This document shows positions 7,958-39,258 of a DNA stretch of 43,488 nucleotides, piece after piece. The notes beneath the pieces were generated by a model. It searched no databases. It had not been told where the DNA came from and saw only the letters and a list, made by a program, of their open reading frames with translations. Position 1 is the stretch's first letter. Every line of letters starts with the position of its first letter. The stretch lies in the IMG/VR virus record IMGVR_UViG_3300037422_000481; one strand, given 5' to 3'. Made by a program: the position numbers and the translations under genes. This stretch comes from a virus.

Positions 7958-9000
7958 GGCAACACAGTTGCCGTGAGGGGGCTCGAGAGCGTGCGCGGTC
8001 CAAGCTCGATCGCCTGGAAGGCGTAGCTGCGGCCGATCAGGCCAGCGTCTGGCGGGATCGCCCAGCTCAACGTCGAGGGCCCGCGCCGCAGCCATGTGCC
8101 GACGAGCGGAGACGCCAACCACCACTCGCCGGCCACGCGCACCTGGACAGGCACGCGCAGCTCGGAGGCGACCACGACCTCGACCCAGCCTGTGGCGAGG
8201 ATCTCGAGCTCGAGCGCACCGCCCATCCTGGACGGCTCGCTGAGCCGCAGCACGGGCTCGAGCTTCCCCTGGTCGCCCGCGCGCACGACTTGCACGCGCT
8301 GCGCGGGCGGGCCGTCCCCGACCTCGAGGCGTGAGCTCGAGACGCGCAGCGTCGCACACTTGATGGCTCCGCCACCGACTCCCATGCGACCCTGGCGTTC
8401 GTCCCCACCGCTGCCGCCATCGCCTCCGATCACCACCGAGTCGATCACGAGCACGGTGGACATCGAGGCCTCCACCGCCCAAGTACCCGCCATGCCGGCC
8501 GTACGCGCCGCGGAGGCCTGTAGCGTGCAGCGCTCGAGCACGACGAGCGTCGCGTCGGTGAGCAGCGCGGGCGCGGACACAAGCTCGTCCTCGCCCCAAG
8601 GGAACGGAGGCCGCCAGGCGGCCGCGCGCACGTCGCAACCCTCGAGCACGAGCGTCGAGGCCCACAGCCCGTTGCCGTAGATCGCCGGTTTCGTGATCGG
8701 GTACTGCGTTCCTCCGGCGCGCCCTCCGAAGCGGATGTTCACGAGCCGCACCGTGCCGGAGAAGGGACCGGAGATGAAGAGGGCCTCGGTGTAGCCGCCG
8801 AGCTCGCGCGACCCGACCAGCACCGGCGCTGGATCTCCCAGCAGAGTCAACGGGCGCTGGATCGAGACGGCGCCGTGCACGCCGCCATGCACGATCACGA
8901 CATCGTTCGCCTTGGCGGAGTCGAGTGCGGCCTGCAAGGTGTCGTGCGTGCCGGGCACGTGGAGCTGGGCGAGAACGAGAAGGAGCGAGAGGAGGGTCAT
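7954..9000 (-). CDS. Predicted exported parallel beta-helix protein, about 348 aa.
   Basis: The N-terminus is hydrophobic (MTLLSLLLVLAQLHVPG). With the alternative TTG 9024 start it also gains a K/R n-region. Repeated short beta-strand/turn units are typical of pectate-lyase-like folds (VVIVHGG, VRLVNIRFGG, LVLEGCDV, VVLERCTL, VLVIDSVVIGGDGG, LRVSSSRLEV). ATG 9000 overlaps the TGA of the upstream gene (ATGA). Confidence 0.6.
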   Translation of the reverse strand: MTLLSLLLVLAQLHVPGTHDTLQAALDSAKANDVVIVHGGVHGAVSIQRPLTLLGDPAPVLVGSRELGGYTEALFISGPFSGTVRLVNIRFGGRAGGTQYPITKPAIYGNGLWASTLVLEGCDVRAAAWRPPFPWGEDELVSAPALLTDATLVVLERCTLQASAARTAGMAGTWAVEASMSTVLVIDSVVIGGDGGSGGDERQGRMGVGGGAIKCATLRVSSSRLEVGDGPPAQRVQVVRAGDQGKLEPVLRLSEPSRMGGALELEILATGWVEVVVASELRVPVQVRVAGEWWLASPLVGTWLRRGPSTLSWAIPPDAGLIGRSYAFQAIELGPRTLSSPLTATVLP

Positions 9001-12615: not shown

Positions 12616-12974
12616 GGAATCTCCTCGGCGGCTTCTCCGCCCGTGTCTTCGGCCCTGTGAATCCTCCGCTTGTTGATCAGCCGGATGCACCACTCGTAGA
12701 GTTGGAACAGCTTCAGGTTCGCGGAGTTGCGCACTTCGAGTTGCCCGAGGTAGTCGCGCGCCTCTGCCTCGGATGCGAAGAAGGTCGCGAGATCCGGCGA
12801 GGAACTCGCGACCGTGGCGTGCTGCTTCGAGATCAGGAAGCGCTCGTCCTTGGTGAGGAGCACGTAGATCTGCTTGCAGAGCGGCACGGACATGGAGACC
12901 ATCCCAAGAGTCATGAGCGGGACGGGCTGGGCTTTCTCTACCCAGGGTGTCTCGACTGCGATGCGGTTGGTCAT
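12612..12974 (-). CDS. Hypothetical protein, 120 aa.
   Basis: Track ORF. ATG 12974 overlaps the TGA of the upstream gene (ATGA). Confidence 0.6.
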   Translation of the reverse strand: MTNRIAVETPWVEKAQPVPLMTLGMVSMSVPLCKQIYVLLTKDERFLISKQHATVASSSPDLATFFASEAEARDYLGQLEVRNSANLKLFQLYEWCIRLINKRRIHRAEDTGGEAAEEIP

Positions 12975-14143
12975 GAGGGGTTCATCCTCTGCGTACTAGC
13001 CGGAGAGCTCGGCACTCCATCGTCCTCGCCAGCGAAGAGCTCGCCCGTCTTCGTGCGGCGCAGGAACTCGCGCGTCTGTCCGCGGGTCATGACGTCTCGT
13101 TTCGCGAGGCCGATCTCCTCGCGGTACTTGTTGAGCTGGCGCTGCGACGCGGAGCCGGCGGCGATCGCCGCAGCCAGCTCGGTGAGCAGCGAGTGCGTCA
13201 CCGGCTCATCGTCGTCGTCGGCCTTCTCCGCCGGAGGCGTCGGCGCGGGGGCCGTGCCGGCGGTGCTCGCGGCCGCCACCTTGTCGAGGCCTTCCTTCGC
13301 GCTGCCGGCCTTCGGCACGCGGAAGTATTCCTCGCGGTTCGAGTTGCCATCCTTCAAGGACTGCGCGATCGCCAAGAGGTCCGCGAGTTCGCGCTCGTCG
13401 ACCTGGGCGATGTCGTGCTCGAGGAAGGCGTCGATCATATCCTTCGTGACGGCGAACTCCTGGAACACGAAGAGCAGCTTCTTGCAGGTCGCGTCGCGGT
13501 CGAGCGCGAGCGATTGCTTGGCGCCCTCCGCTCGCGTCTTGGAGGCTACCCGCAAGGCGTCCTCGATCACGTCAGGCGGTATCAGCTTGAGGATCGAGTT
13601 GCGCTCGCAGAACGCGCCCCACTTCGCCGTGGTCTCGCGCAGCTCGCGCTCGTCGTCCGTGACGATCCACTCCGTCACGCCCGTCTTCGCGTTTTCGCGC
13701 TGGAACTTTTTCAAGAAGCGGTGCTCGGTCTCGGTGTAGGCGTTGGTCTGCACGTCGTGCGCCCAGCCGCAGAGCTGGCGCGCCTCGGGCGTGTCCTCGA
13801 CGATGCGGATGCCGGAACGGATGTTGCCCCAGTACTGCGCGATCAGCCGCGCAAGCTGCACGCTGGGTCCAGAGATCTGGGTCGTCTTGCCCTTGCTTCG
13901 GCGCGGGAAGGAGTACGTCGCTTCCTCGGCCACGCCCCGCCGGCCGCACGCCGTCATGATGGACGTGTGAGCGCGGAGCTCGTCGCGCGGGCGCGCCATC
14001 GCGGCGAGGATGGAGGCCTTGATCAGGCCTTCCTCGCGCGCGATCGCGGCCGCGGTGAGCGGTGTGAGCCCTTCGCCGTTGCGCTGGACCGTGGCCGGCA
14101 CGAAGGAGGGCGCCGGCACGACGTCGTCGATGTCGGAGCTCAC
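12971..14143 (-). CDS. Putative recombination (single-strand annealing) protein, 390 aa. The function is inferred mainly from position next to the exonuclease.
   Basis: GTG 14143 is preceded by AAGGAG with an 8-nt spacer and overlaps the exonuclease TGA (GTGA). Internal start of track ORF 12971..14569. The core ...ATYSFPRRSKGKTTQISGPSVQLARLIAQYWGNIR... could not be placed by eye in RecT, Red-beta or Erf. Confidence 0.4.
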   Translation of the reverse strand: MSSDIDDVVPAPSFVPATVQRNGEGLTPLTAAAIAREEGLIKASILAAMARPRDELRAHTSIMTACGRRGVAEEATYSFPRRSKGKTTQISGPSVQLARLIAQYWGNIRSGIRIVEDTPEARQLCGWAHDVQTNAYTETEHRFLKKFQRENAKTGVTEWIVTDDERELRETTAKWGAFCERNSILKLIPPDVIEDALRVASKTRAEGAKQSLALDRDATCKKLLFVFQEFAVTKDMIDAFLEHDIAQVDERELADLLAIAQSLKDGNSNREEYFRVPKAGSAKEGLDKVAAASTAGTAPAPTPPAEKADDDDEPVTHSLLTELAAAIAAGSASQRQLNKYREEIGLAKRDVMTRGQTREFLRRTKTGELFAGEDDGVPSSPASTQRMNPS

Positions 14144-15009
14144 GAGGTTTGCTCCTTCGTCATCGACTCGAGGAGGGCCCCGAGTTGCGCCTGGTCGGGC
14201 GTGTACCAGGTGGGCAAGCCGATGTCGGTGGGCAAGCCGGAGAGGTCGGGCCACTGACCGCTCTTCTGGCAGGCCGCGAAGACCTGCAGCAGGAAGTCGA
14301 TCTCGAGGCGCCCGAGGTTGATGGCTTCCTGCGTCAGGCGGTACACCGCCGCGTCGTACGGAGCGCAGCGCTCGTAGGCCACGCAGTAGTAGGCCGGCAG
14401 ACGCCCTTCGTGCGTGGCCGCGTAGCCCCACGAGTACCAGGCCGCCTGCAGGTGCAGCTTCTGGCTCGCGATCGTGCGCGCGAACGAGAAGAGCGAGCAG
14501 TCCTCGGTGGTCTTGAGGTCGCAGATGACGTCGGGCCCCGGCAACAGGATGTCGAGGCGCCCCTTGCACGGCGTGCCGTCCGGGAGCTGCCAGGCGAGCG
14601 TGACCTCACGCATCGCGCCCGGGTGCTCGAGCAGGAGCTTCACGTAGGGCTTGGCCCGGATGGACGCGGCGATGCCGCGGATCGCTGCGCCTTGGTTCGC
14701 GGTGAGACACACCGCGTCGGGATGTTCAGCCTCGAAGACCTTCCATTCCTTGAGGCGACGGTCCGAGACGGGTCCGATCGCGTGCGCCGCCTCGAAGCGC
14801 GCCGGCTCGAGGATGGCGCAGTGCACCGCCTTGCCGACGAGCTGCGCGTCGGTCTCTTCGTCGTCCGGATGGTCCTTCCTGTAGCGGTAGCGCGCGGGGC
14901 TTCGCGAGAGCTCGACGAGGTCGCTGCGCGAGAGCGCGTCCGTCTGCAGGTACTGAGCCCAGCCGATGTCCTTGTGAACGCCTGGAGAGAGAGAGGTCAC
15001 GGTTTCCAT
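14140..15009 (-). CDS. PD-(D/E)xK exonuclease (RecB/RecE-C-terminal/YqaJ-like), 289 aa.
   Basis: GRLDILLPGPDVICDLKTT (D...DxK) and QKLHLQAAWY (QxxxY) are typical of RecB-family phage exonucleases. ATG 15009 is preceded by AAGGAA with an 8-nt spacer. Confidence 0.7.
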   Translation of the reverse strand: METVTSLSPGVHKDIGWAQYLQTDALSRSDLVELSRSPARYRYRKDHPDDEETDAQLVGKAVHCAILEPARFEAAHAIGPVSDRRLKEWKVFEAEHPDAVCLTANQGAAIRGIAASIRAKPYVKLLLEHPGAMREVTLAWQLPDGTPCKGRLDILLPGPDVICDLKTTEDCSLFSFARTIASQKLHLQAAWYSWGYAATHEGRLPAYYCVAYERCAPYDAAVYRLTQEAINLGRLEIDFLLQVFAACQKSGQWPDLSGLPTDIGLPTWYTPDQAQLGALLESMTKEQTS

Positions 15010-15766: not shown

Positions 15767-16269
15767 GGGGCGGGGCCCGGGGCATCCGGGACTCCGCCCT
15801 CGACTTGGTTCGGAGGTTCGGGGGCTCGCGGGGTGGAATCCGCGGCTTGGTTGTCCCGGGCCTCGGCTCTGCCCAGCACCAGGCGCAGCTCGAGGAGGAC
15901 CAAGCGCGCTGCGATCGCGAGCCCCCGCACGCGCGCCTGCGTCTCGAGGTCGTCCGTCACCACCACGGTGATGGGCGCGAGGAGCTGCAGGGCCAGGTCG
16001 ATCGACTGGTAGAGGTCGAGCGTCTCGGCCCCGCCGGCCAGGACGAGCTCGAGGTTCGCGTCGACGACGCCGAGGGCCTCGTGGATCGGCTCGAGCGTCT
16101 CCGCCAGAGACGGATCGAACTCTCCGTACCCCGCGATCACGTCACCGATCGCGGTTCCGAAGATCTCAACCTGCGCATGGACCTCGACCAGCTCAAGTCG
16201 GTTGCCGGCCGGCGTGCTCCGGCACGCACAGACCAGGGCGGCCAGGGTTGCGATGGGCGTCGTCTTCAT
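15751..16269 (-). CDS. Putative lipoprotein, 172 aa.
   Basis: MKTTPIATLAALVCAC is a signal peptide with an imperfect lipobox. ATG 16269 overlaps the TGA of the upstream membrane protein (ATGA) and is preceded by AAAGGAA. Confidence 0.6.
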   Translation of the reverse strand: MKTTPIATLAALVCACRSTPAGNRLELVEVHAQVEIFGTAIGDVIAGYGEFDPSLAETLEPIHEALGVVDANLELVLAGGAETLDLYQSIDLALQLLAPITVVVTDDLETQARVRGLAIAARLVLLELRLVLGRAEARDNQAADSTPRAPEPPNQVEGGVPDAPGPAPLPQA

Positions 16270-16595
16270 GTGTTCCTTTCTTCGTGGGGTTTGACCTGCC
16301 GCCCGGGCGCCTCGGTGCGCTCCCACATGCGGGCGATGCGCACGTGTTCCTCCGCCAGCACCAGAACGTTGTCGAGTTTGAGGCCTTGCTGGGTCATCCG
16401 CTCCGTGAACAGCGTCTCGAGTCTGCTCACGAGAGCCGGCGTTGCCTCCTGGGCCGCGGCCATGCGGTCCATCGCCTGCGTGATCCGTCGCAGAAAGAAT
16501 CCGATCGTGACGATGCCGCTGATCACGACCGCCATCAGCAGCCAAGCGACGACGCCGACGTCCTTGACGAGGTCAGGGGACGGAAACTGTTCCAC
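16266..16595 (-). CDS. Single-pass membrane protein, about 109 aa.
   Basis: One hydrophobic helix (VGVVAWLLMAVVISGIVTIGFFL) is followed by a charged helical region. GTG 16595 is the assumed start. It overlaps the giant ORF end by 23 nt. Confidence 0.55.
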   Translation of the reverse strand: MEQFPSPDLVKDVGVVAWLLMAVVISGIVTIGFFLRRITQAMDRMAAAQEATPALVSRLETLFTERMTQQGLKLDNVLVLAEEHVRIARMWERTEAPGRQVKPHEERNT

Positions 16596-19500
16596 GCGCG
16601 GTCGTGTCTGCGCTGAGGCGCCGGATCGCCGAGATTCTCCGGAGCAGCTCACGCGCGTGCTCGCTCTCCGAGCTGCGCAGCTGCGGTCCGAGGAAGGAAC
16701 CCGAGGGACGATAGGGCTCGTAGCGGTTCCGGATCACCTGCGCGATCGTGTCGGCCGAGAGTGCTCCGCGCAAGCTGCGCATGATCTCGCTGTCCGTGAG
16801 GCCGAGCCCTCGCGCGGCGCTGAGGGCCGCCTGGAAGTCCTCCCACAGGCGGCTCCTGGCGCGCTCGGTCGCTCCGTACGCCTCGACCAGGTCCTCGTCA
16901 CTCACGCGGCCGCGCTTGCCGGCCACGCGCGAGAGGATCGAGGTCGCGTCCGCGCTCTGCCGTGCAAACTCGCGCGCCAGCTGGTGCAGGGCCTGGCGCG
17001 TGTCGACCGAGCTCATGCGCACGCCCGAGAGCATCGCGAGCGTCTCCACCCCCGGATCGTAGACGCGGCCGTACTGCGTCACCTCGCCCTGCAGGCCGCG
17101 CGCGATGCGCCGCAGGCTCGTCGCGGTGCCCGGCTCGACCGCCTTGCCGAGGTGCGCCAGGACGTCGCGCGTTTGGGCAAGCGTGGAGTCCTCGGGGTCG
17201 TAGATCTGGTTGTCGAACTCGTCGCGGTTGTACCAGAGGGCGTCGATCACGGCCTTGGTCGCGATCTCCTCGGAGAAGAACGGCGCCAGCACGTTGGCGG
17301 CGCCGCGGCGCGCAGCGTCCTCCCAGTCGTCGCCGCGCAGGAAGGCCATCAGCGGCTTCTTGAGGTAGCTGTGCGGGTCGAGGTAGCTGATGTCGACGTA
17401 GGTGCGCGCGCCTTCGCTGTTCTCCGCCAGCCACAGGAGATCCGAGTCACGCGACCACGGCGGAAGGAACTTGCGCGCCGCCTCGTCGTCGTCGTCGGTC
17501 ATGCCCACGAGGTAGCGCGCCAGCGCTGCGAGTCCCGCTGTCCAGCCGGCGGCGAGGAAGGTGCCGGCGAGCCGCCGTGCGCCGATCACGCGCACACCGC
17601 TCGTCTGGCTCCCGAGCTCGCTGCGGATCTGCATGATCGTGTTCTTCGCCGTGCGCATCACCTCCCACGGGAAGCTCACGAAGGTGCCGACCAGCGGGAA
17701 CTGGCGCAGCTGGCGCACCGCGCGCGGCACCATCGAGTAAGTCGGGAAGACGTTGCGCACGATCTCGGCGGTCTTGCGCTCGAGCTCGTCGGCGCTGAGG
17801 CGCGGCTCGGCCTTGCGGTAGGCCGCCTTCTCGTTCTCCCACGCGAAGAGCTTCCAGAAGTCGTCCTGCGCGCCGTACACGCGCGAGAAGAAGTGGAGGG
17901 CACGCACGCCCTTCGCCTTGGCGCTGTCCGGATCGAACATGGACGCATCGGCGACGTGCACGTCCTCGAGCAGCGCGCGCAACTCCTGGCCGTGTGGGCT
18001 CTCGTGGATCACGCCGAGCTCGACTGCGCGGCGCAGGTAGGCGCGCCAAGCCGGCCGCGAGAGCGCGTGGAACTCCGCGGCCATGCCCTTGAGCGCCGGA
18101 GCGAACTTGCCGGCGCGGAAGTAGCCTTGCGCCAGGGCGAAGCCGGTGTTGCCGAGGTTGTTCCGGACCGTGGTCATGACCGAGAGCACGGTCTTCGAGT
18201 ATTTCGCGATCCCGTTGATTGCGACCCACCAGCGCCACGCCGTGTCCAGGCTCGCCGGCTCCATCTGCTTGAAGGCGTCGCGGATCTCCGGCGTGGTGTA
18301 GAGCCCGTTCAGCGGCGCGTAGACGGCCGAGGCCTCACCCGCGATGCGCGCCTTCGCCTCGGGCGGGATGGCCGGATCGTCGCCCTCCCACAGGTAACGC
18401 CCGAGACCATCGGCACGTACGGCCGCCAGGAACTCGTGGTTCCCGATCGTGAAGGCCATCTTCGAGACCGAGCGCATGTAGTTGACGCGCGCGTCCTTGT
18501 ACTCGCCCCACAGCGCGCGGATCTCGACCGGGACGTTCTTCCTGCGCTTCATGAAGGAGAGATCCTTCGTCCCAAGCTTCGCCTGGGCCATGACGCGCAC
18601 CGGCCCGTCGGCGGCCTTGCCCTCGAAGAGCAGCCGCTCGATCACGGCCTCGAGCGCGCGCGGCTGCTGGCGCGCCTGCAGCACGCCGATCTCGCGCTGC
18701 ACGCGCGCCATGCGCCGCTGCGTCGAGCCAAGCCGCGCCAGGTCCTTCTTGGTGGGCTTGGACACGGCCTCGAGCGCAGCCTCGAGGCCGGAGAGCGCGC
18801 CCAGCAGTCGGCCAGCTTGGAACTCGCGACGGGAGTACTCCTGCGCGATGAAGGCCTTCGCCGCGTTGCGCGCTTGCACGGGAACCTTCTCGGCCCACTG
18901 CGGGTCGTCGAAGGCCCGGTAGCTGCGCGTCGCGTAGAGCTCGAGGTTCTTCGTGATCACCGGCACCAGGCGCTGGTCGACGACGCCGCTCGAGATCAGG
19001 CGCTGCGAGAGCTCCTTGATGTGGTTGCGCGCGGCCTGCACGGCGTTGCCTAGCTTGACTGGGAGCGCGCCGCGCGCGGTCGGGTCCTTGAGGGCGTCGT
19101 CGACCAGCGCGACCTGGGCGGGCGTCAGCTTCTTGCCAAAGGTCGCACGCAGCGCCGCGACCAGGTCGTGCTCGATCTCCTCGGCGCGCCGCATGTGCGC
19201 GTTGATCCAGCCATCGCGCCGGATCTTCGAGGCGAAGGGCCCCTCGGGCAGTCCTGCGGCCGCGGTGAAGTTGCGGCGCCAGCCTCTACCGAGCGAGAAG
19301 AGCACTGGAGCGCCGCCGCCTTCGCTGAACTCGTTCGCGATCTGTTGCTCGATGGGCAGGTTCTCTTCGGCAATGAAGGACGCTTGCCCACCCGCGAGAT
19401 CACGCGCTCGAGCCGCGAGACCCTCAAGCCGTGCCGCCACCCGCGTTGGCTTCTCCTTCAGCACGGAGCGCAAGATCGCGACGGCGGTCGCGTCGCTCTT

Positions 19501-22500
19501 CCATCCCACGTCGATACCAGGCATGACGGCTTGCCGCAGAACGTCAGCCAGCGGCTGATTCGTCTGCACGACCTCGGCGGCTCCCTGAGCCACGTGAAGC
19601 ATCGTGTCCGCGAACCCGGGCGCGCGCGCCTTCAACGTGACGAGCGCCGGAAGGGCCCGCAGTAAGACGTTCCGAGTCGCTGGTGGCGTCTCCACGAGCG
19701 TCCGCACGTCGCCGATCACGCTGCCGAGCAGTGCGTCCTCGATGACCTGCTTCCCGCTCTGAGTCGGGATGCCGCGCCGTGGATCGAAGAGCTCGGCCAT
19801 GTCCCGTTGTCCCAGCGCACCGGCCCGCACCATCGTCCGCGCGATGTCTCTCGCCTTGCCCGCGTCGCCGAGCGCGTCACGCAACGTGCCTTCGCCGATC
19901 ACGCCCGCAATCGAGCTCGCGACCTCGGCCGTGATTTTCGATCCGCGCGACACGGCTTCGGTCGTAGCGCCCTTCCCGGTCGTAAGCGACTCGTTCAGGA
20001 CGCGCGAGAGCTCGCCAGGTGCGCCTTCGCGGCCTGGCTCGACGATGCGCACCAGAACCGGATCGGCGATCCCGAGCGGTTCGATGCCGAAGCGCTTGGC
20101 CGCCTTGACCATGCCCGCGCGAATCTCTTCCGCTTGCGGACCGGCTCGTGAGTAGGCGAGCTGCATCCCCATCGTGCGCGCATTGCCCCCGAGCACGACG
20201 CCCTTGCTCGTCACGATCGGAGGACCGTCGACCGGCGAGGGTGTGTCAGTCGTGAGCAGCGACACCTTGGGAGCGTTGGCGATCGCTCGCACTGTCTCCC
20301 GCATCGGCGCGCCCTCAACGGGATCGTCGTAGGGGCGCTCGTTCAGGTCGCCGGCCGGGTTGCGGACGAACCCGCGTCGCACGTCATGGCTCGGCACGAG
20401 CTCGCTGGCTGCCACGATGGCATAGGTCACGGGCAGGGTACGACCCTCGGCGAGTTCGACCGTCGATGCCTCCCCGGAGCGAACGAGGATTTCCAGTTCT
20501 TGTCCAGGCTGGATCCGGCTACCCTTGAGGGGTAGTCTTCCCCCGACGATGCCGCTTCCTGATTCCTTTCCTGCTGGAACAACCTTCTGGGATTGCAGTG
20601 ACGTTCCCGTGGTGGCCACTCCAGGGCTGGTCTGCACGGCCTTCGATGTGCCGGACGGGCGGCGTTTCCCCTGCACGACGGTCGATAGCGACGGCGTGCC
20701 GATCTCGGAGGCGGCCTTCCGCGCCATGGTGCCCAAGGCCATCGCTCGACTGGCCGCGTTCCAAGCCGAGTCGTAGACCGCGCGCTGCTTGGCCTCGAGC
20801 TGGTCGATGCGGCGCTGCTGCTCACCCGTACGTGGGCCTCGAGCGCGCTGCAACCGCTGCATCTCTTCGTACTCGAGATGGAGGCGCTCCTTCGCCTCGA
20901 TCATTCTAGGCACGTTGATCTGCACCTCGGCGTGCAGGGCACCCAGGTCGAAGTGCATGAGTATGTCGCGGTAGCCGGTCGTCACGATCGGCGCCGTGAA
21001 GTCGCGGAACTTCACCGGCTCACCGAACCGTCTGCGCAACTCGACGACGGCCGCTTCGGCCTGCTCGAGCGTGTCCACCACGACGGTGCCGCGCAGGATG
21101 TCGCGCACTCGCGTCGCGTCGCCTTGATAGTCGTGCAGCGCTTTCACCAGCGCCCGAGCCATGCTCTTCACGCCAGGCAATAACGGCTTGTGGTGCGAGC
21201 CCACGGCCTTCGCCACCGCGCGAATGGAGCGGCCGAAAGAGGGCTCGCGCCTTCGCGCCGCAGCCAAGAGCTTGACCAACGTCCGCCGCGCCCGCAGTTC
21301 GACGGCGCGCAGATCCAGTTTCCGCGGCTTGCGCTCCTTGGGCGGCGCAGCGGCGAGGCGTTCACGCTTCTTCTTGCCGCGCTGCCGGAATCCGACCCGG
21401 CGCGGGCGCGCCTCCAGCCCTTCGAGCTCGAGCTCCATACGCGAAGGCTGTATGCGCCGCGTGACCTCCAGGCGCGGGGGCTTCGGCAGCTTCGCGAGGC
21501 GGCGCTCGAGCACGCGGACTCGAGCCTCCGCGCCTGAGCGACCACGGAGTGCGCGGATCTCGGCCTCGAGCTTCCCGCGCTTCTGGCGCACGCGCTTCGC
21601 CTGCGGGCCGGTGAGAGCCTGCTGCGAGGGGATCCAAGTTGGTTGAGGGATGCCCCGTTGCGCTTCGCGCGCGGCCGGAACGGCACGCTGGCTGGGCTCT
21701 ACAGCCCTCTGCCGACGGGGAAGTTCTCCACGGACAGGAATCCGGCGTCCCTCTTCCGGCCATGCGGCGCTCGTTCCTGCCGGTGCGGCAGGGCCGGCCG
21801 CAATGGCAGCCGCTGCCGGCCTTCTCGAGGGACGCCGGTAGCCCTCGATCGTGGCGAAGGCCTGCTGCACGAGCCGCGCGATCTCTGGGATGCGCGCCGG
21901 CTCGATGACGATCTCCTGGTCGGTCTCGGCGAGTTCGTCCCTGAGCTCTCGCAGCGCCTTCTCCGTCGACGTCTCCAGGTGCACGCCCGCGCGGCGCACC
22001 ATCCGGATCAGCGCGTCGATCATGCGCCGCAGGAGGCCGGGGCGCTCCGCAGCTTTGCGGAAGCGCTCGCCCTCGAAGAGGAGCCCGCCGCGCTCTTCCA
22101 GGTAGTTCGAGACCGCCTCTTCCGCCTGGCGCTCTGGGCTCAAGCCCTGGGCCTTGTAGCGTTCCCTGACGTCGAGCTCGGTCGCCGCGAAGCCCTCCGG
22201 ATCGACCTCCTTCAGATCGACGGCGAGCTGGTTCGCGGTGTCGACGGCCGTGTCGCCAGCCATGTCCTCGCGCACGACCTGGGCGAGGTGGTGGTAGGCC
22301 TCGTGGAGGAGCAGCCGCCGCTCGAGCACCTTGTCCGCGGCCGCGACGTCGAAGACCAGCGCGCGCTGCTCGGCCACGTAGCCGGCAGGGGCCGCTCCGC
22401 GATCGCCCTCTTCTTCCTCCGTCGGTTCGTCGGTGTACTCGACGAAGACCGCTTCAGCGCCCAGGCGGCGCGCGCGCTCGGCCACGCGAGCCTGAGCGGC

Positions 22501-23772
22501 GCTCCGGGGCTCCACCACGGCGCCCGTGCGCCCCTGGCGGCCTAGGAAGGTTGCAGCGGCGCGGCGGCCACCTGCGGACGCCGGCGCGACGTAGGGGATA
22601 TCGTCCGGTGCAGAGCCCGGTGATGCATCGGGCACAGCCACGTCGCCTTCAGCGGCTGCGAATAGTCCGCGTGGTGTGCCTCGACCTTCGAGCTCTTGCA
22701 CACGGCGCAGGGCAGCTTCTTCACCAAGCCCCTGCGCACGTAGACGCGCAAGTAGCTGCGCGCGATCGCCCTCCGGCGCGTCTCGCCCACTAACGGGTGT
22801 GCCTTCCTCCAGACCCTTGTCTTCGCGTTCTGACACGGACGGCAGTACCCGCCGACGCCCTTCGGCGTCCGCGCGCAGTTCGGGCACAGACCGTCCTTCC
22901 GCCTCATGTTGTGGAACAGTACCGCCCCCAACCTCCGCCGTCGAGGCCAGGGCCGAGAGGAGTCCGCCAGCGACCGCCGGCACCACCAGGGCCTCCCCGC
23001 TGGCCCAGCGCTGCATGAGTTCTTCCAGGGGTTTTCTTGCCTGGTCATGGCGCGAGATGTAGCGCGCCGTGACGTCGGCCAGCACCTGCTGGAAGTTCTC
23101 CTGCAGCACCTCTTCACCGGCCTCGAGCGCGGCCGTGCGGATGAAGCGCGAGAGCATGCGCCCGCTCGCCTTGTCGGCGAGCCCGAGCACGCGCCGCGCT
23201 TGGCCGGCGATCGGGACCGCCTCGCTCGCACCCTCGATCACGCCCAAGAGCGCCGCGAGGAGAGCCGCGTCCTGTGCTTCCTCGGACTCCGGGTCCTCGA
23301 AGGAAGCCAGCGCCTCCTTGTAGCGCGGCCCGACGGTCGCCAGCACGCCCGAGGTGCCAGCCATGAGCGGCGCCGCTACTGGCGCGCTCGCGCCGAGACC
23401 CACGAGGCCCGCCGTGCCGAGCGCGGTCGCGCCCAGGAATCCAAGGCCACTGCCGACGCCCTCGACCGTCTTCTCGAAGAGCGACACGGGCGCGGCGCCA
23501 GCACGCTCGCGTTGTTGCCCGAGCCAGCGCGCGGCGTCACCCATGCGCGGGATGCCCAGTACCTCGCCGGTCTCGGCCGCGCCCTGCACGACCCCGAGCG
23601 CGCCCCGCGCGAGACCTCCGACGATCGTGGGCGGGACGCGCTTGATCTTGGGGCCGAAGAGCCTCCGCAGCTCTTCCTCGAGCGGATCCTCTTCCACCTG
23701 CGCAGCAGGAGCATGCGCGCCGCTGAACAACGTGCGCAGCTCCTGCTCGAGCGGATCCTCCGCGTCCCTCAT
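16573..23772 (-). CDS. Formal 2,399-codon ORF for a giant multidomain (polyvalent-type) putative internal-virion or ejected protein. It may not be one continuous gene (see the nested HNH gene).
   Basis: ATG 23772 (MRDAEDPLEQELR...) overlaps the TGA of the upstream gene (ATGA). The first 398 codons of track ORF 16573..24966 are shadow of gene 23769-25247. Contents:
- Gly/Ala-rich hydrophobic segments (about 23340-23480).
- HEAYH (22291-22305).
- An RSH-like segment (20857-21180).
- A ParB-like segment (20090-20439).
- About 1,100 unassigned C-terminal residues.
Third-position G/C collapses in this frame across about 22545-22925. Confidence 0.55.
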   Translation of the reverse strand: MRDAEDPLEQELRTLFSGAHAPAAQVEEDPLEEELRRLFGPKIKRVPPTIVGGLARGALGVVQGAAETGEVLGIPRMGDAARWLGQQRERAGAAPVSLFEKTVEGVGSGLGFLGATALGTAGLVGLGASAPVAAPLMAGTSGVLATVGPRYKEALASFEDPESEEAQDAALLAALLGVIEGASEAVPIAGQARRVLGLADKASGRMLSRFIRTAALEAGEEVLQENFQQVLADVTARYISRHDQARKPLEELMQRWASGEALVVPAVAGGLLSALASTAEVGGGTVPQHEAEGRSVPELRADAEGRRRVLPSVSEREDKGLEEGTPVSGRDAPEGDRAQLLARLRAQGLGEEAALRRVQELEGRGTPRGLFAAAEGDVAVPDASPGSAPDDIPYVAPASAGGRRAAATFLGRQGRTGAVVEPRSAAQARVAERARRLGAEAVFVEYTDEPTEEEEGDRGAAPAGYVAEQRALVFDVAAADKVLERRLLLHEAYHHLAQVVREDMAGDTAVDTANQLAVDLKEVDPEGFAATELDVRERYKAQGLSPERQAEEAVSNYLEERGGLLFEGERFRKAAERPGLLRRMIDALIRMVRRAGVHLETSTEKALRELRDELAETDQEIVIEPARIPEIARLVQQAFATIEGYRRPSRRPAAAAIAAGPAAPAGTSAAWPEEGRRIPVRGELPRRQRAVEPSQRAVPAAREAQRGIPQPTWIPSQQALTGPQAKRVRQKRGKLEAEIRALRGRSGAEARVRVLERRLAKLPKPPRLEVTRRIQPSRMELELEGLEARPRRVGFRQRGKKKRERLAAAPPKERKPRKLDLRAVELRARRTLVKLLAAARRREPSFGRSIRAVAKAVGSHHKPLLPGVKSMARALVKALHDYQGDATRVRDILRGTVVVDTLEQAEAAVVELRRRFGEPVKFRDFTAPIVTTGYRDILMHFDLGALHAEVQINVPRMIEAKERLHLEYEEMQRLQRARGPRTGEQQRRIDQLEAKQRAVYDSAWNAASRAMALGTMARKAASEIGTPSLSTVVQGKRRPSGTSKAVQTSPGVATTGTSLQSQKVVPAGKESGSGIVGGRLPLKGSRIQPGQELEILVRSGEASTVELAEGRTLPVTYAIVAASELVPSHDVRRGFVRNPAGDLNERPYDDPVEGAPMRETVRAIANAPKVSLLTTDTPSPVDGPPIVTSKGVVLGGNARTMGMQLAYSRAGPQAEEIRAGMVKAAKRFGIEPLGIADPVLVRIVEPGREGAPGELSRVLNESLTTGKGATTEAVSRGSKITAEVASSIAGVIGEGTLRDALGDAGKARDIARTMVRAGALGQRDMAELFDPRRGIPTQSGKQVIEDALLGSVIGDVRTLVETPPATRNVLLRALPALVTLKARAPGFADTMLHVAQGAAEVVQTNQPLADVLRQAVMPGIDVGWKSDATAVAILRSVLKEKPTRVAARLEGLAARARDLAGGQASFIAEENLPIEQQIANEFSEGGGAPVLFSLGRGWRRNFTAAAGLPEGPFASKIRRDGWINAHMRRAEEIEHDLVAALRATFGKKLTPAQVALVDDALKDPTARGALPVKLGNAVQAARNHIKELSQRLISSGVVDQRLVPVITKNLELYATRSYRAFDDPQWAEKVPVQARNAAKAFIAQEYSRREFQAGRLLGALSGLEAALEAVSKPTKKDLARLGSTQRRMARVQREIGVLQARQQPRALEAVIERLLFEGKAADGPVRVMAQAKLGTKDLSFMKRRKNVPVEIRALWGEYKDARVNYMRSVSKMAFTIGNHEFLAAVRADGLGRYLWEGDDPAIPPEAKARIAGEASAVYAPLNGLYTTPEIRDAFKQMEPASLDTAWRWWVAINGIAKYSKTVLSVMTTVRNNLGNTGFALAQGYFRAGKFAPALKGMAAEFHALSRPAWRAYLRRAVELGVIHESPHGQELRALLEDVHVADASMFDPDSAKAKGVRALHFFSRVYGAQDDFWKLFAWENEKAAYRKAEPRLSADELERKTAEIVRNVFPTYSMVPRAVRQLRQFPLVGTFVSFPWEVMRTAKNTIMQIRSELGSQTSGVRVIGARRLAGTFLAAGWTAGLAALARYLVGMTDDDDEAARKFLPPWSRDSDLLWLAENSEGARTYVDISYLDPHSYLKKPLMAFLRGDDWEDAARRGAANVLAPFFSEEIATKAVIDALWYNRDEFDNQIYDPEDSTLAQTRDVLAHLGKAVEPGTATSLRRIARGLQGEVTQYGRVYDPGVETLAMLSGVRMSSVDTRQALHQLAREFARQSADATSILSRVAGKRGRVSDEDLVEAYGATERARSRLWEDFQAALSAARGLGLTDSEIMRSLRGALSADTIAQVIRNRYEPYRPSGSFLGPQLRSSESEHARELLRRISAIRRLSADTTARGTVSVP
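20090..20439 (-). other. ParB-N-terminal-like (DdrB-ParB type) segment inside the giant ORF.
   Basis: YAIVAASELVPSHD...NERPYDD...GPPIVTSKGVVLGGNARTMGMQLAY matches the ParB-like layout (...SHD...PR.R...GxPIV...xxGNxRxxA) seen in polyvalent proteins of phages and plasmids. By-eye assignment. Confidence 0.45.
20857..21180 (-). other. RelA/SpoT-homologue (RSH) synthetase-like nucleotidyltransferase segment inside the giant ORF.
   Basis: The segment reads GVKSMARALVKAL...VRDILRGTVVV...TTGYRDILMHF...AEVQINVPRMIEAKERLHLEYEE. It parallels the RSH synthetase motifs in the same order: RxKxxxSxxxK, DxxGxRxI, GYxSxH, EhQIRT, HxxYK. Confidence 0.55.
22291..22305 (-). other. HExxH zinc-metallopeptidase-type motif inside the giant ORF (LLLHEAYHHLAQ).
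   Basis: The codons cac gag gcc tac cac were read on the minus strand. The preceding ~70 residues (AEAVFVEYTD...GYVAEQRALVFDV) resemble the start of a zincin-like domain. This is motif-level evidence only. Confidence 0.45.
22542..22907 (-). CDS. HNH-type endonuclease-like zinc-finger protein, 121 aa. It is encoded out of frame inside the giant ORF and may be a mobile homing-endonuclease cassette.
   Basis: MRRKDGLCPNCARTPKGVGGYCRPCQ...KKLPCAVCKSSKVEAHHADYSQPLKATWLCPMHHRALH matches the common phage HNH pattern C-x2-C...(E)AHH-x-DY-x-x-PL-x-x-x-WLC-x-x-x-H-x-x-x-H. This is the C-terminal part of track ORF 22542..23231. Third codon positions are almost all G/C in this frame, but mixed in the giant-ORF frame over the same bases. 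Confidence 0.7.
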   Translation of the reverse strand: MRRKDGLCPNCARTPKGVGGYCRPCQNAKTRVWRKAHPLVGETRRRAIARSYLRVYVRRGLVKKLPCAVCKSSKVEAHHADYSQPLKATWLCPMHHRALHRTISPTSRRRPQVAAAPLQPS

Positions 23773-25247
23773 GACCTCTTCGTCTTGATGCGTTTCTGCT
23801 GCGCCGTCACCTTGCGCTGCAGGCGGCTTCCCTTCGGTTGCTTCGGCGGGTTCTCGATGAACTCGCGCAGCTGCTTGCGCTTCTCGGCCGGACTGAAGTC
23901 GCTGCGCTCTTCCGTGACGCTGCGTGGGCCCTCGGTCGTGCTCGTGCCGAGCCACCTTAGCTCCGGCTTCTCGGGTGCAGCCTCGCGCTCCGTGAAGTCG
24001 CGCTGCTGCCATGCGGCCGAGAGTTCCTGCTTCACGTCCTCCGGCAGAGCCTCGACGTCGGCGCGCTCGAGCACGGCCTTGACGGCCTGCACGACCTCTT
24101 CGGTGCCGCGCGCCGCGCGCACGACCTCGAGCAACTCCGCGCGCACCTCGGGCTCCAGCGGTCGCACGGTGCCGCCTGGCGCCTCGGGCGGGCCAGCCTC
24201 TTCGGGCTCGTCGAAACGCCCCGTCAGCGTGTAGCGCGCGAAGCGGTCGAGCAGCGCGGCTTGCTCGGCCTGCTTCATGAATATGAAGCCCTGGTCCTTC
24301 ATCAGATCGGAGAGCAGGCGCTTCCTCAGCTCGACTTCGTCGTGCTGGTTGGGCGAGAACATCAGCCCGGAGATCTCCGCGAGTGCCTTCTCCGGGTCGA
24401 CCACGCGCCAGTTCATGCCCCACTGCTCGAGCAGGAAGTTCGCTTTGGCTTGGCGCTGGCGCCACTCGCTCCCGGTGATGTTTAGGTAGGGCGGCGGAGC
24501 CGGCAGCGCGATCGCTTCGCTCGCGGACTGGTGGAAGCGCAGGAAGGTCGCCTGGACCGAGCGCTCGCGCGCGATCGTCGCGCGCTCTTCCATCAGGAAG
24601 CGCTCGAGCACGGCCGGGTTGACGTCCGGCCGGTTCTCGTCCTCGAGATCGGCCAGCATCTGCATGCCCTGCTCGGGCGAGAGCACGGGCTCCTCGCCGT
24701 TCGGGCCAGGCTGCATCGCGTCCTGGATCTGGCCACGCACCGCGGCCGTGCTCTTCTCGAGGCCGCGCTTGACCGCCTGCTGCTGCAGGAACTGCATCGC
24801 GTCGGCGCGGTCCTCGGGGGCCATCGTGGCCATGGCCTCGCGGATCCGCGCGTTCAAGCCCAGGATGGGAGCGATCGAGGCGGCGAAGATCTGCGGCACG
24901 TGGGCCGTGTTCGCAGCGGGCATGATCGACCCGGGCGCGCGTCCGCGGATCGCGTCCATGGCCCACATGTCGAAGTCGGTCTTCGCCTGGCGTTCGCGCA
25001 GCTCGCGCGCGCGGTCGTCCTGCTCGAAGCGGAAGCGCTCCTGGGCCTGCGTCAGCGCGGCCCGCTGCGTCTCGCCGGCACGCGCCTCCTGGCGGTCGAA
25101 GCGCGCTTCGCGCCGCAGCGCCAGGTCGTGCTCGCGCTCGCCCTCCTTCTTGCGCAGCTTGAAGAGCCGCTCGTCCTGCAGGAAGCCGGCGATGCCCTTG
25201 CCGGTCTCGCTGACGCCCTCGACGATGTCGGCGATGACGCTCGGCAG
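23769..25247 (-). CDS. Putative internal virion protein, 492 aa if started at CTG 25247 (399 aa from the first ATG at 24968).
   Basis: Track ORF 23769..24968. The 279 nt upstream are open in the same frame with near-uniform G/C third positions (LPSVIADIVEGVSETGKGIAGFLQDERLFKLRKKEGERE...). They contain no ATG, GTG or TTG. CTG 25247-25245 sits 7 nt after AAGGAG (25260-25255). Confidence 0.6.
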   Translation of the reverse strand: MPSVIADIVEGVSETGKGIAGFLQDERLFKLRKKEGEREHDLALRREARFDRQEARAGETQRAALTQAQERFRFEQDDRARELRERQAKTDFDMWAMDAIRGRAPGSIMPAANTAHVPQIFAASIAPILGLNARIREAMATMAPEDRADAMQFLQQQAVKRGLEKSTAAVRGQIQDAMQPGPNGEEPVLSPEQGMQMLADLEDENRPDVNPAVLERFLMEERATIARERSVQATFLRFHQSASEAIALPAPPPYLNITGSEWRQRQAKANFLLEQWGMNWRVVDPEKALAEISGLMFSPNQHDEVELRKRLLSDLMKDQGFIFMKQAEQAALLDRFARYTLTGRFDEPEEAGPPEAPGGTVRPLEPEVRAELLEVVRAARGTEEVVQAVKAVLERADVEALPEDVKQELSAAWQQRDFTEREAAPEKPELRWLGTSTTEGPRSVTEERSDFSPAEKRKQLREFIENPPKQPKGSRLQRKVTAQQKRIKTKRS

Positions 25248-36618: not shown

Positions 36619-37071
36619 TCACGCGCGCCCCTTCCTGGGGCCCTTGCGCCGCCGGCGATGCGCCCGTCCTGGCGGTGGCCCCTCGATCACGACGGTGGGG
36701 ATCTTGCTCATGGCGTGGGCCTTCTGGCAGCGCGGCGTACGCTCGCAGGTGGCCGGCATGGCGCCGTAGGCGAGCTCGGGGTGGCGCGCCAGGAACTCGT
36801 CGAGCTCGCGCCGGCTGGTGAAGCGTGGCTGCCCGTAACTCGCGCTCTTCGGGTCGCGGTCGTAGGCGGGCGCGTCCGGATACCACTGCGGCAACTGCCA
36901 CGACACGAAGTGCACGTCCTTGGCCGGCTCGGTCGACTGCCACGAGACCACGCGCCGGCAGGGCCCGTGCCCCTCGAGTGCGACGAGCTCGCCGATCGGA
37001 GGAGCCTTGCCGAAGGGGAAGTCGGCCTCGACCTTCGCGCCGTCGCTCCGCTCGAACTCGTAGAGAGTCAC
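36619..37071 (-). CDS. Hypothetical protein, 150 aa, with a basic C-terminal tail.
   Basis: GTG 37071 overlaps the TGA of the upstream micro-ORF (GTGA). Internal start of track ORF 36619..37170. Confidence 0.55.
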   Translation of the reverse strand: MTLYEFERSDGAKVEADFPFGKAPPIGELVALEGHGPCRRVVSWQSTEPAKDVHFVSWQLPQWYPDAPAYDRDPKSASYGQPRFTSRRELDEFLARHPELAYGAMPATCERTPRCQKAHAMSKIPTVVIEGPPPGRAHRRRRKGPRKGRA

Positions 37072-37229
37072 GTGTTCCCGCCTCGCGCCTTCTCCCGCCG
37101 ACGCTCGAGCTGGATCTGCCGCAGCTCGCGCAGCGCGTTCACCGTGTAGACGACCGCGTACGCGACGCACACGGCGGCGAGCGCCAGCACCTGCCCGATC
37201 GCGGACTCGAGGATCCCTTCCAGGGTCAT
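37068..37229 (-). CDS. Small single-pass membrane protein, 53 aa (MTLEGILESAIGQVLALAAVCVAYAVVYTVNALRELRQIQLERRREKARGGNT).
   Basis: Not in the track. ATG 37229 overlaps the portal TGA (ATGA), and its own TGA overlaps the next GTG (GTGA). Third-position G/C is high. Confidence 0.5.
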   Translation of the reverse strand: MTLEGILESAIGQVLALAAVCVAYAVVYTVNALRELRQIQLERRREKARGGNT

Positions 37230-39253
37230 GACTTCTCCTTCGTGGTTGAGCTCGTGCCGAGCGAGCGGTTGCTGCGCCCCGCGCCAGGTAGTCTACCCAG
37301 CGCCCGCCCGGACGCCGCAGCAGGACCCCGTGAGCTCACCATCCCCGCGCGCGGGGCGCGCACGTCGGCCTTGGCCCCGCCGCCCCCCGGTCCGCCGGGC
37401 CGCGCCTGCTGCGGGCGTGCCTGGCCGAGCTGCGCGTAGTTCTGACCGCGCGAGTTCAAGAGGTGCCCGGGCGAGCGCTGCGTGCTGGCCGGCGTCTGCG
37501 CGCCCATGACCGAGGCGCCCATCTGCGCCTGGAGCTGCTGCGCGTGGCGTTGCATCTCCTTCCAGTCCACGAGCTCGGCCAGGTCGGGGACCTGGAAGGC
37601 CACGCCGACGTGCTTGGCGATCTCGGGCCACTTCGCCTCCGGGAACTGCACCATCATCGGCATCGTGCCGACCAGCCACTCCATGGCCGAGACGACCTGA
37701 GCGGAGTAGCCGGAGTCCATGAGGCGCTGCGAGAAGGGCTCCACGTCGAGCTCGAGCGCAGCCAGCGGCACATCCTGCGCCGTGATCCCTCCTTGGTAGC
37801 GCAGCCGCCTGACCTTGTTCGGGTCGATGCCGAGCTCCTCGAACGCCTCCTGGTCGAGCTCGATCACCGTGCGGTTGTCGTGGTAGATGAAGTGCAGCGC
37901 GTTCTTGAGACCGGCGACCGTGCCGAGCTTGAATTGGAGGTCCACCCACTCCACGCGCGTCTCGCTCGCGCCGGCCGCTCGGTCCACTTCCGTGGCCGTG
38001 CCGCGGCCCTCGATCGAGCCGCGCGAGGGCGTGTCCAAGTGCAACGTGCGGTTCACGCGGTCGCGCGCGATCGCGCTGTACGCGATCTGCTGGTCGGTGA
38101 TCCCGCCGACCTCGGCCTCCTGCATCTTGTCCTTGGAGAAGCCGACCAGCGGCAGGATGCCGTGGTGCCCGATGTTCGCGATCGCGTTCTGGATCCGTGG
38201 ATCGGTCTTGTCCACCACGATGAAGCGCTTGTAGTCCTTCGCGCTCTCGGAGAGCGAGCGTGCGTGCGCGTTGGCGTCCTTGATCTGCTCCTCGGCCACG
38301 GCGAGCGGTGAGAGGTGTCGCGTGGATCCGGGCACGAAGTGCACGCCGAAGAGCGTGAAGGGTCCCTCCATTGGCCCGTAGTAGGGGCGCGGCTTGCGTA
38401 GCCAACTCGAGGGTGACGAGCCGTTTGGCGTCTCGACCGGCAGCGTGAGCGTCAGCCCGTGGAACCCCCACGCGCGCCAGCCGCGCACGGGCCCGCCGCC
38501 CTCGAACTCGGCTTCGGGCACCCACTCCTCGCTCCAGCACACGAGGTCGCGTCCAGTGTCGACGTCGACGTCGTTCTGCTGCAGCAGCTCCTTCGCGATC
38601 CCCTTCGGCAGAGCCTGGATCTCGGCCAGAGACCAGCCCTGGTCGGGGAAGGCGTGCGCTCGCGCAAGCAGCTCCTCGCGCAGCGCGAAGCACACACGCC
38701 CGCGGAAGCGCACCTCGTCCGGCTGGCGCGCGAGCGCGTCGTCGTGGTAGCAGTCGGGTGAGAGGCGGTACGGGTAGGGGGAGTGCGGGATGCCTGGCAC
38801 GTCCGGCTCTTCCGGATCCAGCCCCTCCATCGGTCGCGCGCCCGGAATGCCCTGCTGCGAGGTCAGCATCACGCCGTGCGCGAACTGCATGTCGACGAGC
38901 AGCCAGGAGAGCAACACCTGCAGGTTGCGGTCCTTGATCCAGCGATTCATCGCGAGCTCGAGCACCTTGGCGATGCGCCCCACGCTGCGCTCGCTGCGCA
39001 CAGAGCCGATCCGCACGCGCGGTGCGTTGTAAGCGCTGCGCGGGGTGATGTAGCTGGTCCAGTCCGCGTAGTCGTTCTCGAGCGCCGCGTCCGCGACCGC
39101 GACGTCGGTCCGGAAGTACTTCCCGTGGTACTTCTTGATCATAGGCAGCACGGGCGCGATGTGCGCCTCGGTCTTCGCCATCGCCGCCTTCATCTCGCGC
39201 CACATGCGACCCGGGTCGCCCCACCACGCCGCCGTGTCGATGCGCTCGGCCAC
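37226..39253 (-). CDS. Portal protein, about 675 aa.
   Basis: Internal GTG 39253 of track ORF 37226..39376, 5 nt after the upstream TAG. ATG 39205 is an alternative start. The size and the position (terL, small gene, this gene, scaffold, capsid) fit a portal. Confidence 0.7.
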   Translation of the reverse strand: MAERIDTAAWWGDPGRMWREMKAAMAKTEAHIAPVLPMIKKYHGKYFRTDVAVADAALENDYADWTSYITPRSAYNAPRVRIGSVRSERSVGRIAKVLELAMNRWIKDRNLQVLLSWLLVDMQFAHGVMLTSQQGIPGARPMEGLDPEEPDVPGIPHSPYPYRLSPDCYHDDALARQPDEVRFRGRVCFALREELLARAHAFPDQGWSLAEIQALPKGIAKELLQQNDVDVDTGRDLVCWSEEWVPEAEFEGGGPVRGWRAWGFHGLTLTLPVETPNGSSPSSWLRKPRPYYGPMEGPFTLFGVHFVPGSTRHLSPLAVAEEQIKDANAHARSLSESAKDYKRFIVVDKTDPRIQNAIANIGHHGILPLVGFSKDKMQEAEVGGITDQQIAYSAIARDRVNRTLHLDTPSRGSIEGRGTATEVDRAAGASETRVEWVDLQFKLGTVAGLKNALHFIYHDNRTVIELDQEAFEELGIDPNKVRRLRYQGGITAQDVPLAALELDVEPFSQRLMDSGYSAQVVSAMEWLVGTMPMMVQFPEAKWPEIAKHVGVAFQVPDLAELVDWKEMQRHAQQLQAQMGASVMGAQTPASTQRSPGHLLNSRGQNYAQLGQARPQQARPGGPGGGGAKADVRAPRAGMVSSRGPAAASGRALGRLPGAGRSNRSLGTSSTTKEKS

Positions 39254-39258
39254 CGCTG

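Follow-up and report, generated by a model that had tools for sequence, protein, structure and literature searches.

The stretch of DNA analysed here as a whole, IMG/VR virus record IMGVR_UViG_3300037422_000481 (43,488 nucleotides; hereafter the window), is a phage genome of 68% G+C. Its minus strand carries the gene of a giant virion protein of the polyvalent type (16573..23772, 2,399 amino acids, ATG 23772 to stop 16573-16575). Inside this gene, in the +1 frame of the same strand, lies a second gene of 121 amino acids (22542..22907, ATG 22907 to TAG 22544-22542), whose predicted product is a small HNH-type nuclease. The nested gene is located between the N-terminal domain of the giant protein (residues 1-283, 22924..23772, minus strand), which is hydrophobic, rich in Gly and Ala and ends in ...VVPAVAGGLLSALASTAEVGGG, and an HEAYH sequence (HExxH motif, 22291..22305, minus strand) within LHEAYHH just downstream. 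Hereafter, f0 denotes the frame of the giant gene and f1 the +1 frame of the nuclease, both on the minus strand; each host codon begins one base before a nuclease codon.

The two frames exchange their coding signatures inside the giant gene. Third positions of f0 codons are nearly all G/C down to 22926, fall to about 50% G/C between 22923 and 22602 and return to mostly G/C at 22599, and f1 has G/C third positions in almost all codons between 22920 and 22605. In 120-nucleotide windows, the G+C content of third codon positions (GC3) drops to 0.45-0.62 in f0 and climbs to 0.88-0.95 in f1. Codon-usage log-odds, trained on seven other genes of the window and scored per 40 codons, are +13 to +49 for f0 on either flank and -3 to -14 in windows starting at 22932-22692, where f1 scores +4 to +26. 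Over the core of the nuclease gene, G+C by codon position is 0.57/0.54/0.90 in f1 and 0.90/0.58/0.52 in f0, the latter being the expected pattern because f0 is read there one base ahead of the real codons. By GC3 and codon log-odds, the segment with its codon signature in the +1 frame covers about 325 nucleotides (22600..22925, minus strand), which we call the cassette; the host sequence at its upstream border is ...GAGGTTGGGGGC.

An earlier note, made from the letters of the window alone, had described a codon-position G/C switch from the giant frame to a second frame, and had called for per-frame GC3 and codon-usage plots. Codon-wise GC3, the 120-nucleotide windows and the log-odds all reproduce the switch, with f0 losing its signature from about 22925 to 22600 and f1 gaining it. 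The statement that high f0 GC3 returns immediately after the nuclease stop needs correction, since it returns about 55 nucleotides before that stop, from about 22599. As the note had also stated, both flanks lie in the same frame with no stop between them: across the interval, stop codons are absent from f0 and number four in the third frame. Read in f0, the cassette gives a filler of about 108 residues rich in Ala, Gly, Arg and Glu. It shows no significant similarity to the 31 giant homologues (best E = 0.18) or the 40 fetched loci (best E = 0.82), and no Pfam or PHROG family. The note's statement that the giant frame does not code there goes too far. The nuclease frame shapes the sequence, but f0 contains no stop and its translation almost certainly continues across the interval; both frames are probably read.

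The nuclease reading consists of an N-terminal CxxC...CxxC zinc ribbon, two helices and the motif PCxVC...HH.DY..P....WLC..HH...H. PHROG searches match it to family 2340 'endonuclease' (E = 3.8e-13) and, with a weak score, to family 2255 'HNH endonuclease' (E = 8e-04). A tblastn search matched 274 phage records, and an exhaustive phmmer search matched 15,654 protein clusters at E<=1e-3, with 888 at E<=1e-10. The suggestion that the second frame encodes a small phage HNH/zinc-finger protein is borne out by these matches and by the 121 residues with the motifs then quoted. Conservation of the giant-frame sequence without that of the nuclease frame had been named as the pattern that would speak against such a gene; the opposite is found, with thousands of homologues for the nuclease and none for the f0 reading. 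The best matches are free-standing proteins of 90-170 amino acids with 40-60% identity over residues ~5-105, and the N-termini of the family align with M1 of the nuclease at 22907. All 19 near-invariant residues of the family are present (C8, C11, C22, C25, R34, R50, R59, G60, P66, C67, C70, H78, H79, D81, Y82, P85, W90, C92 and H96). The three best-scoring homologues (P0032, P0033 and P0034) are longer, at 190-210 amino acids, and each contains two tandem zinc-ribbon/HNH units.

The AlphaFold2 model of the nuclease (60 sequences) has a mean predicted local distance difference test score (pLDDT) of 92.4, and its strands 76-79 and 88-91 and helix 93-103 form a beta-beta-alpha unit. On this predicted structure the unit corresponds to a His-Me finger, in which the family keeps H78/H79 and H96 invariant or nearly so. 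C67-x2-C70 and C92-x2-H95, which would form the structural zinc site, are present and conserved. In the family alignment, no conserved Asn stands between HH79 and C92 at the place of the central Asn of the H-N-H triad, and W90 is conserved instead. Many His-Me fingers lack the central Asn. Foldseek against BFVD returned 10 matches at E<=1e-3 (E = 1.2e-07 to 1.3e-04), including 'HNHc domain' and 'recombination endonuclease VII' proteins. A profile search of the PDB placed a Cas5-HNH fusion (8yb6_A, deposited as CasD; E = 0.024) below the zinc ribbon of ribosomal protein eS31/S27ae. We consider the label 'HNH-type' well supported as a family resemblance and a motif, not as membership of a curated family. 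As a separate observation, the best solved-structure match of the family profile (A4) over residues ~37-99 is this eS31/S27ae zinc ribbon (E = 8.5e-05), which probably reflects shared zinc-ribbon geometry.

By comparison with its homologues, the sequence on either side of the cassette is one gene, because five homologous giants (P0001, P0002, P0003, P0013 and P0026) carry the N-terminal domain fused to the DdrB-like ParB core in a single, collinear protein of 1,900-2,600 amino acids. Residues ~53-283 of the window's giant protein match the N-terminus of P0003 (BLASTP, E = 2e-12) and P0001 (E = 5e-07), and also P0002, P0013 and P0026. In these five giants the N-terminal domain is followed by ordinary linkers, and a hidden Markov model (HMM) of the HNH family detected no HNH domain in the homologous giants. 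The BLASTP extension of the N-terminal-domain match to P0003 pairs 'EAEGRSVPEL' with 'EAEGRALPEV'; as a remnant of the host linker this pairing was rejected as chance (E = 8.7 alone).

The cassette can be delimited more closely with a 44.8-kb contig, binned with an Acidobacteriota metagenome-assembled genome (hereafter L036). Synteny of L036 with the window extends over the structural genes and the giant gene, with amino-acid identities of 40-73%. The N-terminal domain of the window's giant protein is 49% identical to that encoded at L036 6938-7462. The two giants align to ...GGLLSA(L/V)AS and again from PAS..RR.AA.F.G.QG..GAVV. Between these points, L036 has ~63 residues of unrelated linker and the window ~114 residues, ~108 of which are the f0 reading of the cassette; L036 contains no nuclease open reading frame (ORF) in any frame at this site. 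The cassette sits exactly between the end of the conserved N-terminal domain and the conserved stretch ahead of the HExxH motif, and on these alignments it is an insertion relative to the uninvaded host homologues.

The nuclease gene runs beyond the cassette into host sequence. At 22545..22604 (minus strand), its last 19 codons truly overlap conserved giant-gene sequence, from which they are read in +1. The resulting C-terminal tail, ISPTSRRRPQVAAAPLQPS, is not conserved in the family: most homologue matches end at nuclease residue ~101-105, and the pLDDT drops to 70-77 past residue ~103. The host reading of the overlap is conserved in L036 (PASAGGRRAAATFLGRQG / IPYVAPASAGGRRAAATFLG), where the alignment resumes at PAS..RR.AA.F.G.QG, and the codon log-odds of the overlap are +6.3 in f0 and -2.0 in f1.

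L036 carries a nested nuclease-like ORF of its own at another site (L036:8352-8768, plus strand), in the +1 frame inside its giant ORF (L036:6623-15040). The GC3 of L036 flips at 8363-8723, with 0.47-0.70 in f0 and 0.93-0.97 in f1. Relative to the site of the window's cassette, this copy lies ~300 codons downstream, in the linker that follows the HExxH region. It matches the window's nuclease over the N-terminal zinc ribbon (53% over 32 amino acids, E = 2e-08) and the family HMM (E = 1.7e-06). It is degenerate, lacking C70 and H78, with a ~20-residue deletion, a 13-residue insertion and no ATG before the first cysteine, and it has the look of an older copy that is decaying where it sits. At the corresponding site the window is free of a cassette, and its interval is ~258 nucleotides shorter than that of L036. 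At the DNA level, the two cassettes can be aligned over the zinc-ribbon part only, and their flanks are unrelated. Since two related phages carry one nested copy each in different linkers, the comparison points to insertion rather than inheritance.

A second assembly, Logan contig SRR13020435_40943, is identical to the window (100% over 21.2 kb). This identity and the same layout in L036 argue against an assembly artefact. Gene calls on the Logan contig comprise exactly the 2,399-residue giant and a 399-residue gene, and the nuclease ORF is not recorded as a gene.

The only nested copies detected with the family HMM are those of the window and L036, and the window contains no other copy of the family beside the nested one. 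A scan of the 40 fetched loci for GC3 flips flagged many segments, mostly linkers rich in Glu, Gln and Lys. It also drew attention to +1-frame stretches in other giants (L040:9249-9401, L040:8250-8450 and L019:~330-670) with GC3 of 0.92-0.96 in f1 and ~0.5 in f0, one of which reads 'MPKKLDRCVRKVKQKGGAKNPWAVCNAAVGKG...'. These three candidates have no Pfam or PHROG match, and they could be further nested genes or mere linker composition.

The composition of the genome explains why the host frame can stay open. Position 1 of each host codon coincides with position 3 of a nuclease codon and is ~90% G/C; T-initial codons are rare at such a position, and stop codons are rare in the host frame for this reason. 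Among 122-codon windows in real genes of the window, 55% are free of stops in this register and 9% in the other. The open giant frame is itself not surprising and is expected at GC3 of ~0.9. Because of the 55% of stop-free windows, a frame-preserving insertion in the right register spares the host ORF in roughly one case out of two, and only such insertions would survive selection on an important virion gene. More generally, where GC3 is ~0.9, about half of all stretches as long as a small gene contain no stop in one of the two alternative registers, and a frame-preserving insertion can therefore leave its host gene intact. The register effect is a bias, not a rule: the published ShiLan case, discussed below, appears to be in the other register.

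Signals of splicing were looked for at the locus. Searched at gathering score, the whole window has no Rfam match; a threshold relaxed to E<=1 over 22200-23300 still brought up no intron, and no structured ribozyme core of a group I intron was found to flank the ORF. Non-ORF sequence in the cassette amounts to only ~18 nucleotides upstream of the ATG, with nothing downstream of the conserved core. Intein-like termini are absent by reading of the sequence, where the f0 insert starts at GGG/TVPQ and ends at ...APDD/IPYV, no dedicated intein profile having been run. No slippery site is seen in the sequence. The window contains no tRNAs, and no sigma-70-like promoter or intrinsic terminator was found in 22300-23400. 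The 25 nucleotides around ATG 22907 fall in the 7th percentile for G+C and in the top 8% for predicted unpairedness, and in this they resemble the giant gene's own start.

We consider it reasonably probable that a nuclease cassette occupies a disordered linker, that the host protein is read through it and that the nuclease is translated separately. The cassette of ~325 base pairs, with its zinc-ribbon/His-Me-finger (HNH-type) nuclease gene, lies between the N-terminal domain and the HExxH region. It preserves the host frame, which gains ~108 residues of filler in place of the linker. The giant protein would then be made as one read-through polypeptide with a tolerance for the filler, to which peptidase processing, proposed for polyvalent proteins by Iyer et al. 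(PMC5512222), may contribute. The nuclease itself may be translated at a low level by internal initiation without a Shine-Dalgarno sequence, and it may have arrived as a mobile, homing-type gene that needs neither intron nor intein. Two of the four explanations that the earlier note had offered, an endonuclease cassette inserted into a linker with the frame preserved and a nested gene, describe this one layout. They share its support, namely the position between conserved blocks, the absence from the site in L036 and the thousands of HNH homologues.

Several observations weigh against this explanation. The HNH profile search that had been proposed gave a divided answer: PHROG 2340 'endonuclease' matched (E = 3.8e-13), and the curated HNH models of Pfam and NCBIfam did not match the nuclease. 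Foldseek against the PDB gave no match at E<=1e-3, the top two being Cas5-HNH at a probability of 0.69-0.75. The proposed alignment to relatives likewise succeeded in part. L036 has no nuclease at the site, but its empty site is not precise, as the linkers are divergent, and no closely related genome supplies a precise one. Presence and absence of the cassette rest on this one syntenic relative, ~45-50% identical in the region, which lacks the cassette here and has a degenerate copy elsewhere. Searches for close relatives came up empty with blastn (query 21900-23800, 50,697 phage records), with a word-indexed protein search using the first 809 residues of the giant and the HNH protein, and with viral-contig scans using the HNH protein, the C-terminal 808 residues and the window+L036 junction alignment. 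No convincing direct or inverted repeats flank the cassette, and the two insertion sites show no similarity to each other. No Shine-Dalgarno or promoter-like site precedes ATG 22907; the other genes of the window likewise lack clear Shine-Dalgarno sequences.

A possible but less favoured alternative keeps the same anatomy and regards the nuclease as a working recombination or packaging gene that resides in the linker, not as a selfish homing element. In three cultured phages (L045-L047; Vibrio phages D60 and 209E38-1 and phage IME_EC2), a free-standing homologue is the gene immediately following SSB, and two of these phages have Erf and SSB as a pair ahead of it. A metagenomic homologue with 55% identity (P0035, in L042) lies just upstream of a large terminase gene and overlaps its start. 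These positions hint at a role of the family in recombination or packaging, and a fixed slot after SSB is equally compatible with a housekeeping and a selfish nuclease, which is a further point against the homing-type origin. The 'recombination endonuclease VII' proteins among the BFVD matches, the exonuclease VIII gene in the window (14140-15009) and the single family copy there point the same way. However, the L036 copy is degenerate and at a different site, suggesting dispensability and mobility, and a fixed place beside a conserved gene is also typical of free-standing homing endonucleases.

It is unlikely that the nuclease ORF is a recently dead, untranslated relic, such that only the read-through giant protein matters. 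The lack of a Shine-Dalgarno or promoter-like site would suit a relic, L036 shows that such inserts decay in place, and high GC3 would last for some time after the loss of function. On the other hand, the 19 near-invariant residues, the ATG and the full-length ORF are all intact, the AlphaFold2 model is confident, and the start region is unusually AT-rich and open.

We regard as very improbable that the HNH sequence belongs to a fusion, either as a C-terminal domain of the 283-residue part reached by +1 frameshifting or as an in-frame domain masked by sequencing indels. The +1 frame is open upstream to 23231, and polyvalent proteins are domain mosaics (PMC5512222). Nevertheless, the family is free-standing at 90-170 amino acids, and the nuclease has its own ATG at the position of the family N-termini; together with the lack of any slippery motif in the sequence, this leaves the frameshifted domain that the earlier note had also listed without support. 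For an in-frame domain, two compensating errors would have to be assumed in the window and another two in L036; the second assembly has the identical sequence, and homologous giants lack such a domain. Least probable of all are two ancestral genes that flank the HNH gene and have lost a stop, or an HNH gene carried by a group I intron or intein: intergenic positions, introns and inteins are all frequent places for HNH genes, but the N-terminal domain is fused to the rest in the five homologues and L036 (the five homologues, with N-terminal domain and DdrB-ParB core in one polypeptide, contradict the two original genes with a hidden stop of the earlier note), there is no Rfam intron and almost no non-ORF sequence, and the HNH gene is out of frame with f0 insert termini that are not intein-like.

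The closest precedent for a nuclease cassette read through by its host gene is the 'hidden HNH' insertion of the ShiLan domain in actinobacteriophage DNA methylase genes, found in ShiLan gp65 and also Pacc40 gp60 (Arsenault, Gosselin & Gogarten 2025, Genes 16:178, PMC11855218). There, as here, an insertion inside a phage coding gene adds no stop to the host frame, whose product over the insertion has no recognisable function, and an alternative frame of the same strand encodes an HNH-type nuclease with zinc fingers. Both lack an intron or intein signature and a recognisable ribosome-binding site, both concern high-GC phages, and in both related host genes carry insertions at different positions. 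The host is a methylase in that system and a giant virion polyvalent protein in the window, and the insertion lies among highly conserved residues there and in an inter-domain linker here. The ShiLan-type nucleases have 195 and 160 amino acids, in contrast to the 121 of the present one, which is of a different-looking family. They are read in the third frame from a GTG at positions 18-20, and not in +1 to the host, and they stop inside the insertion, whereas the tail of the present nuclease overlaps 19 conserved host codons. Active homing was inferred there from a disjunct distribution in close relatives; here the comparison is with one distant relative, which in turn contributes a decayed sister copy.

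Free-standing homing endonuclease genes of T4-like phages, reviewed in PMC2988022, are likewise small nuclease genes without intron or intein, situated by a conserved phage gene and variably present in relatives. They lie between genes or split the host into two polypeptides, whereas the host frame in the window stays open. A T4-like gene of this kind reportedly splits its host gene in Aeh1 (mobE/nrdA). The 'endonuclease' genes of PHROG 2340/11793 (IME_EC2 gp22, Vibrio phage D60 VPHD60_0082 and Vibrio phage 209E38-1 VPH209E381_0090) share 34-43% identity over ~60-80% of the protein and have the same zinc-ribbon and HH...C..H motifs. In contrast to the present gene, they are free-standing and separately annotated, and none is nested.

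The hidden-HNH layout is already known, having been described in 2025 with two examples; new are the giant polyvalent host gene and the uncultured phage lineage. The case extends hidden HNH genes to an unrelated gene class in uncultured high-GC phages, where they occur twice independently in two related genomes, and it suggests a simple compositional reason for the survival of such insertions in high-GC phages. For annotation, the public call is a single 2,399-residue product in which ~108 residues are by-product sequence and the real gene is invisible. Nested copies that are not called as genes would also bias the databases, and surveys of homing or HNH nucleases would undercount them in high-GC phages. 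We suggest tentatively, and as a doubtful generalisation for now, that the disordered linkers of giant polyvalent virion proteins may be safe landing sites for nuclease genes without intron or intein, and that coding sequence of high-GC phages may in this manner offer such genes a general third mode of residence. If so, extreme GC3 would keep the host register stop-free, gene callers and protein databases would systematically miss such genes, and expression of the nested gene could be tied to late transcription of the giant gene.

Among the neighbouring genes, an exonuclease VIII homologue is encoded at 14140-15009 on the minus strand (PHROG 412, E = 5e-61). No Pfam match to an SSB or annealase was found beside it. 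A 390-residue protein of unknown function (PHROG 3657) follows the exonuclease VIII gene, the block spanning 12971-15009 on the minus strand. The large terminase gene of the window is located at 39761-41326. In L036, the portal and terminase segment (16165-20743), which corresponds to 36827-41308 of the window, has the opposite orientation relative to the tail/giant-gene block; on this alignment, the two phages differ by an inversion or rearrangement.

The mechanical ORF that contains the giant gene (16573-24966, minus strand, 2,797 amino acids) is not a single gene, as its first ~1.2 kb belong to another gene in a different frame. This separate upstream gene (23769..24968, minus strand, 399 amino acids) ends in a TGA that overlaps the ATG of the giant gene as ATGA (23769-23772), which suggests translational coupling. 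Because of this overlap, ATG 23772 is most likely the start of the giant gene. Counted from it, the division into 283 and 1,990 amino acids given in the earlier note is correct.

The giant protein matches PHROG 22602 'virion structural protein' (E = 1.5e-55), and its DdrB-like ParB domain (20044..20448, minus strand) matches Pfam PF18763 above the gathering score (E = 5.2e-16). The HExxH region, where L036 also keeps LHEA.HHL, is a candidate zincin-like peptidase domain; Pfam and NCBIfam searches gave no profile match for it. According to Iyer et al. 2017 (PMC5512222), no other domain is as common in polyvalent proteins as the HExxH peptidase domain. The giant protein appears to belong with the polyvalent virion proteins of that study, on the Pfam match for DdrB-ParB and the motif alone for HExxH. 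It shares with the phage-type members the very large, multidomain, virion-associated architecture, the combination of DdrB-like ParB and HExxH, and the location among late structural genes. Unlike here, the paper describes no genes nested in linkers, and its sole mention of HNH concerns GmrSD (PMC5512222). The 31 giant homologues that we found have 1,400-2,800 amino acids, with LPD38, Zeta-toxin and ParB domains among them, and their DdrB-ParB domains are 45-76% identical. One further segment of the window's giant protein, 'GYRDILMHF...HAEVQI' (20950-20976, minus strand), presumably resembles a RelA/SpoT-type nucleotidyltransferase motif. The segment has no profile match. RelA/SpoT-type nucleotidyltransferase domains are listed for phage polyvalent proteins (PMC5512222).

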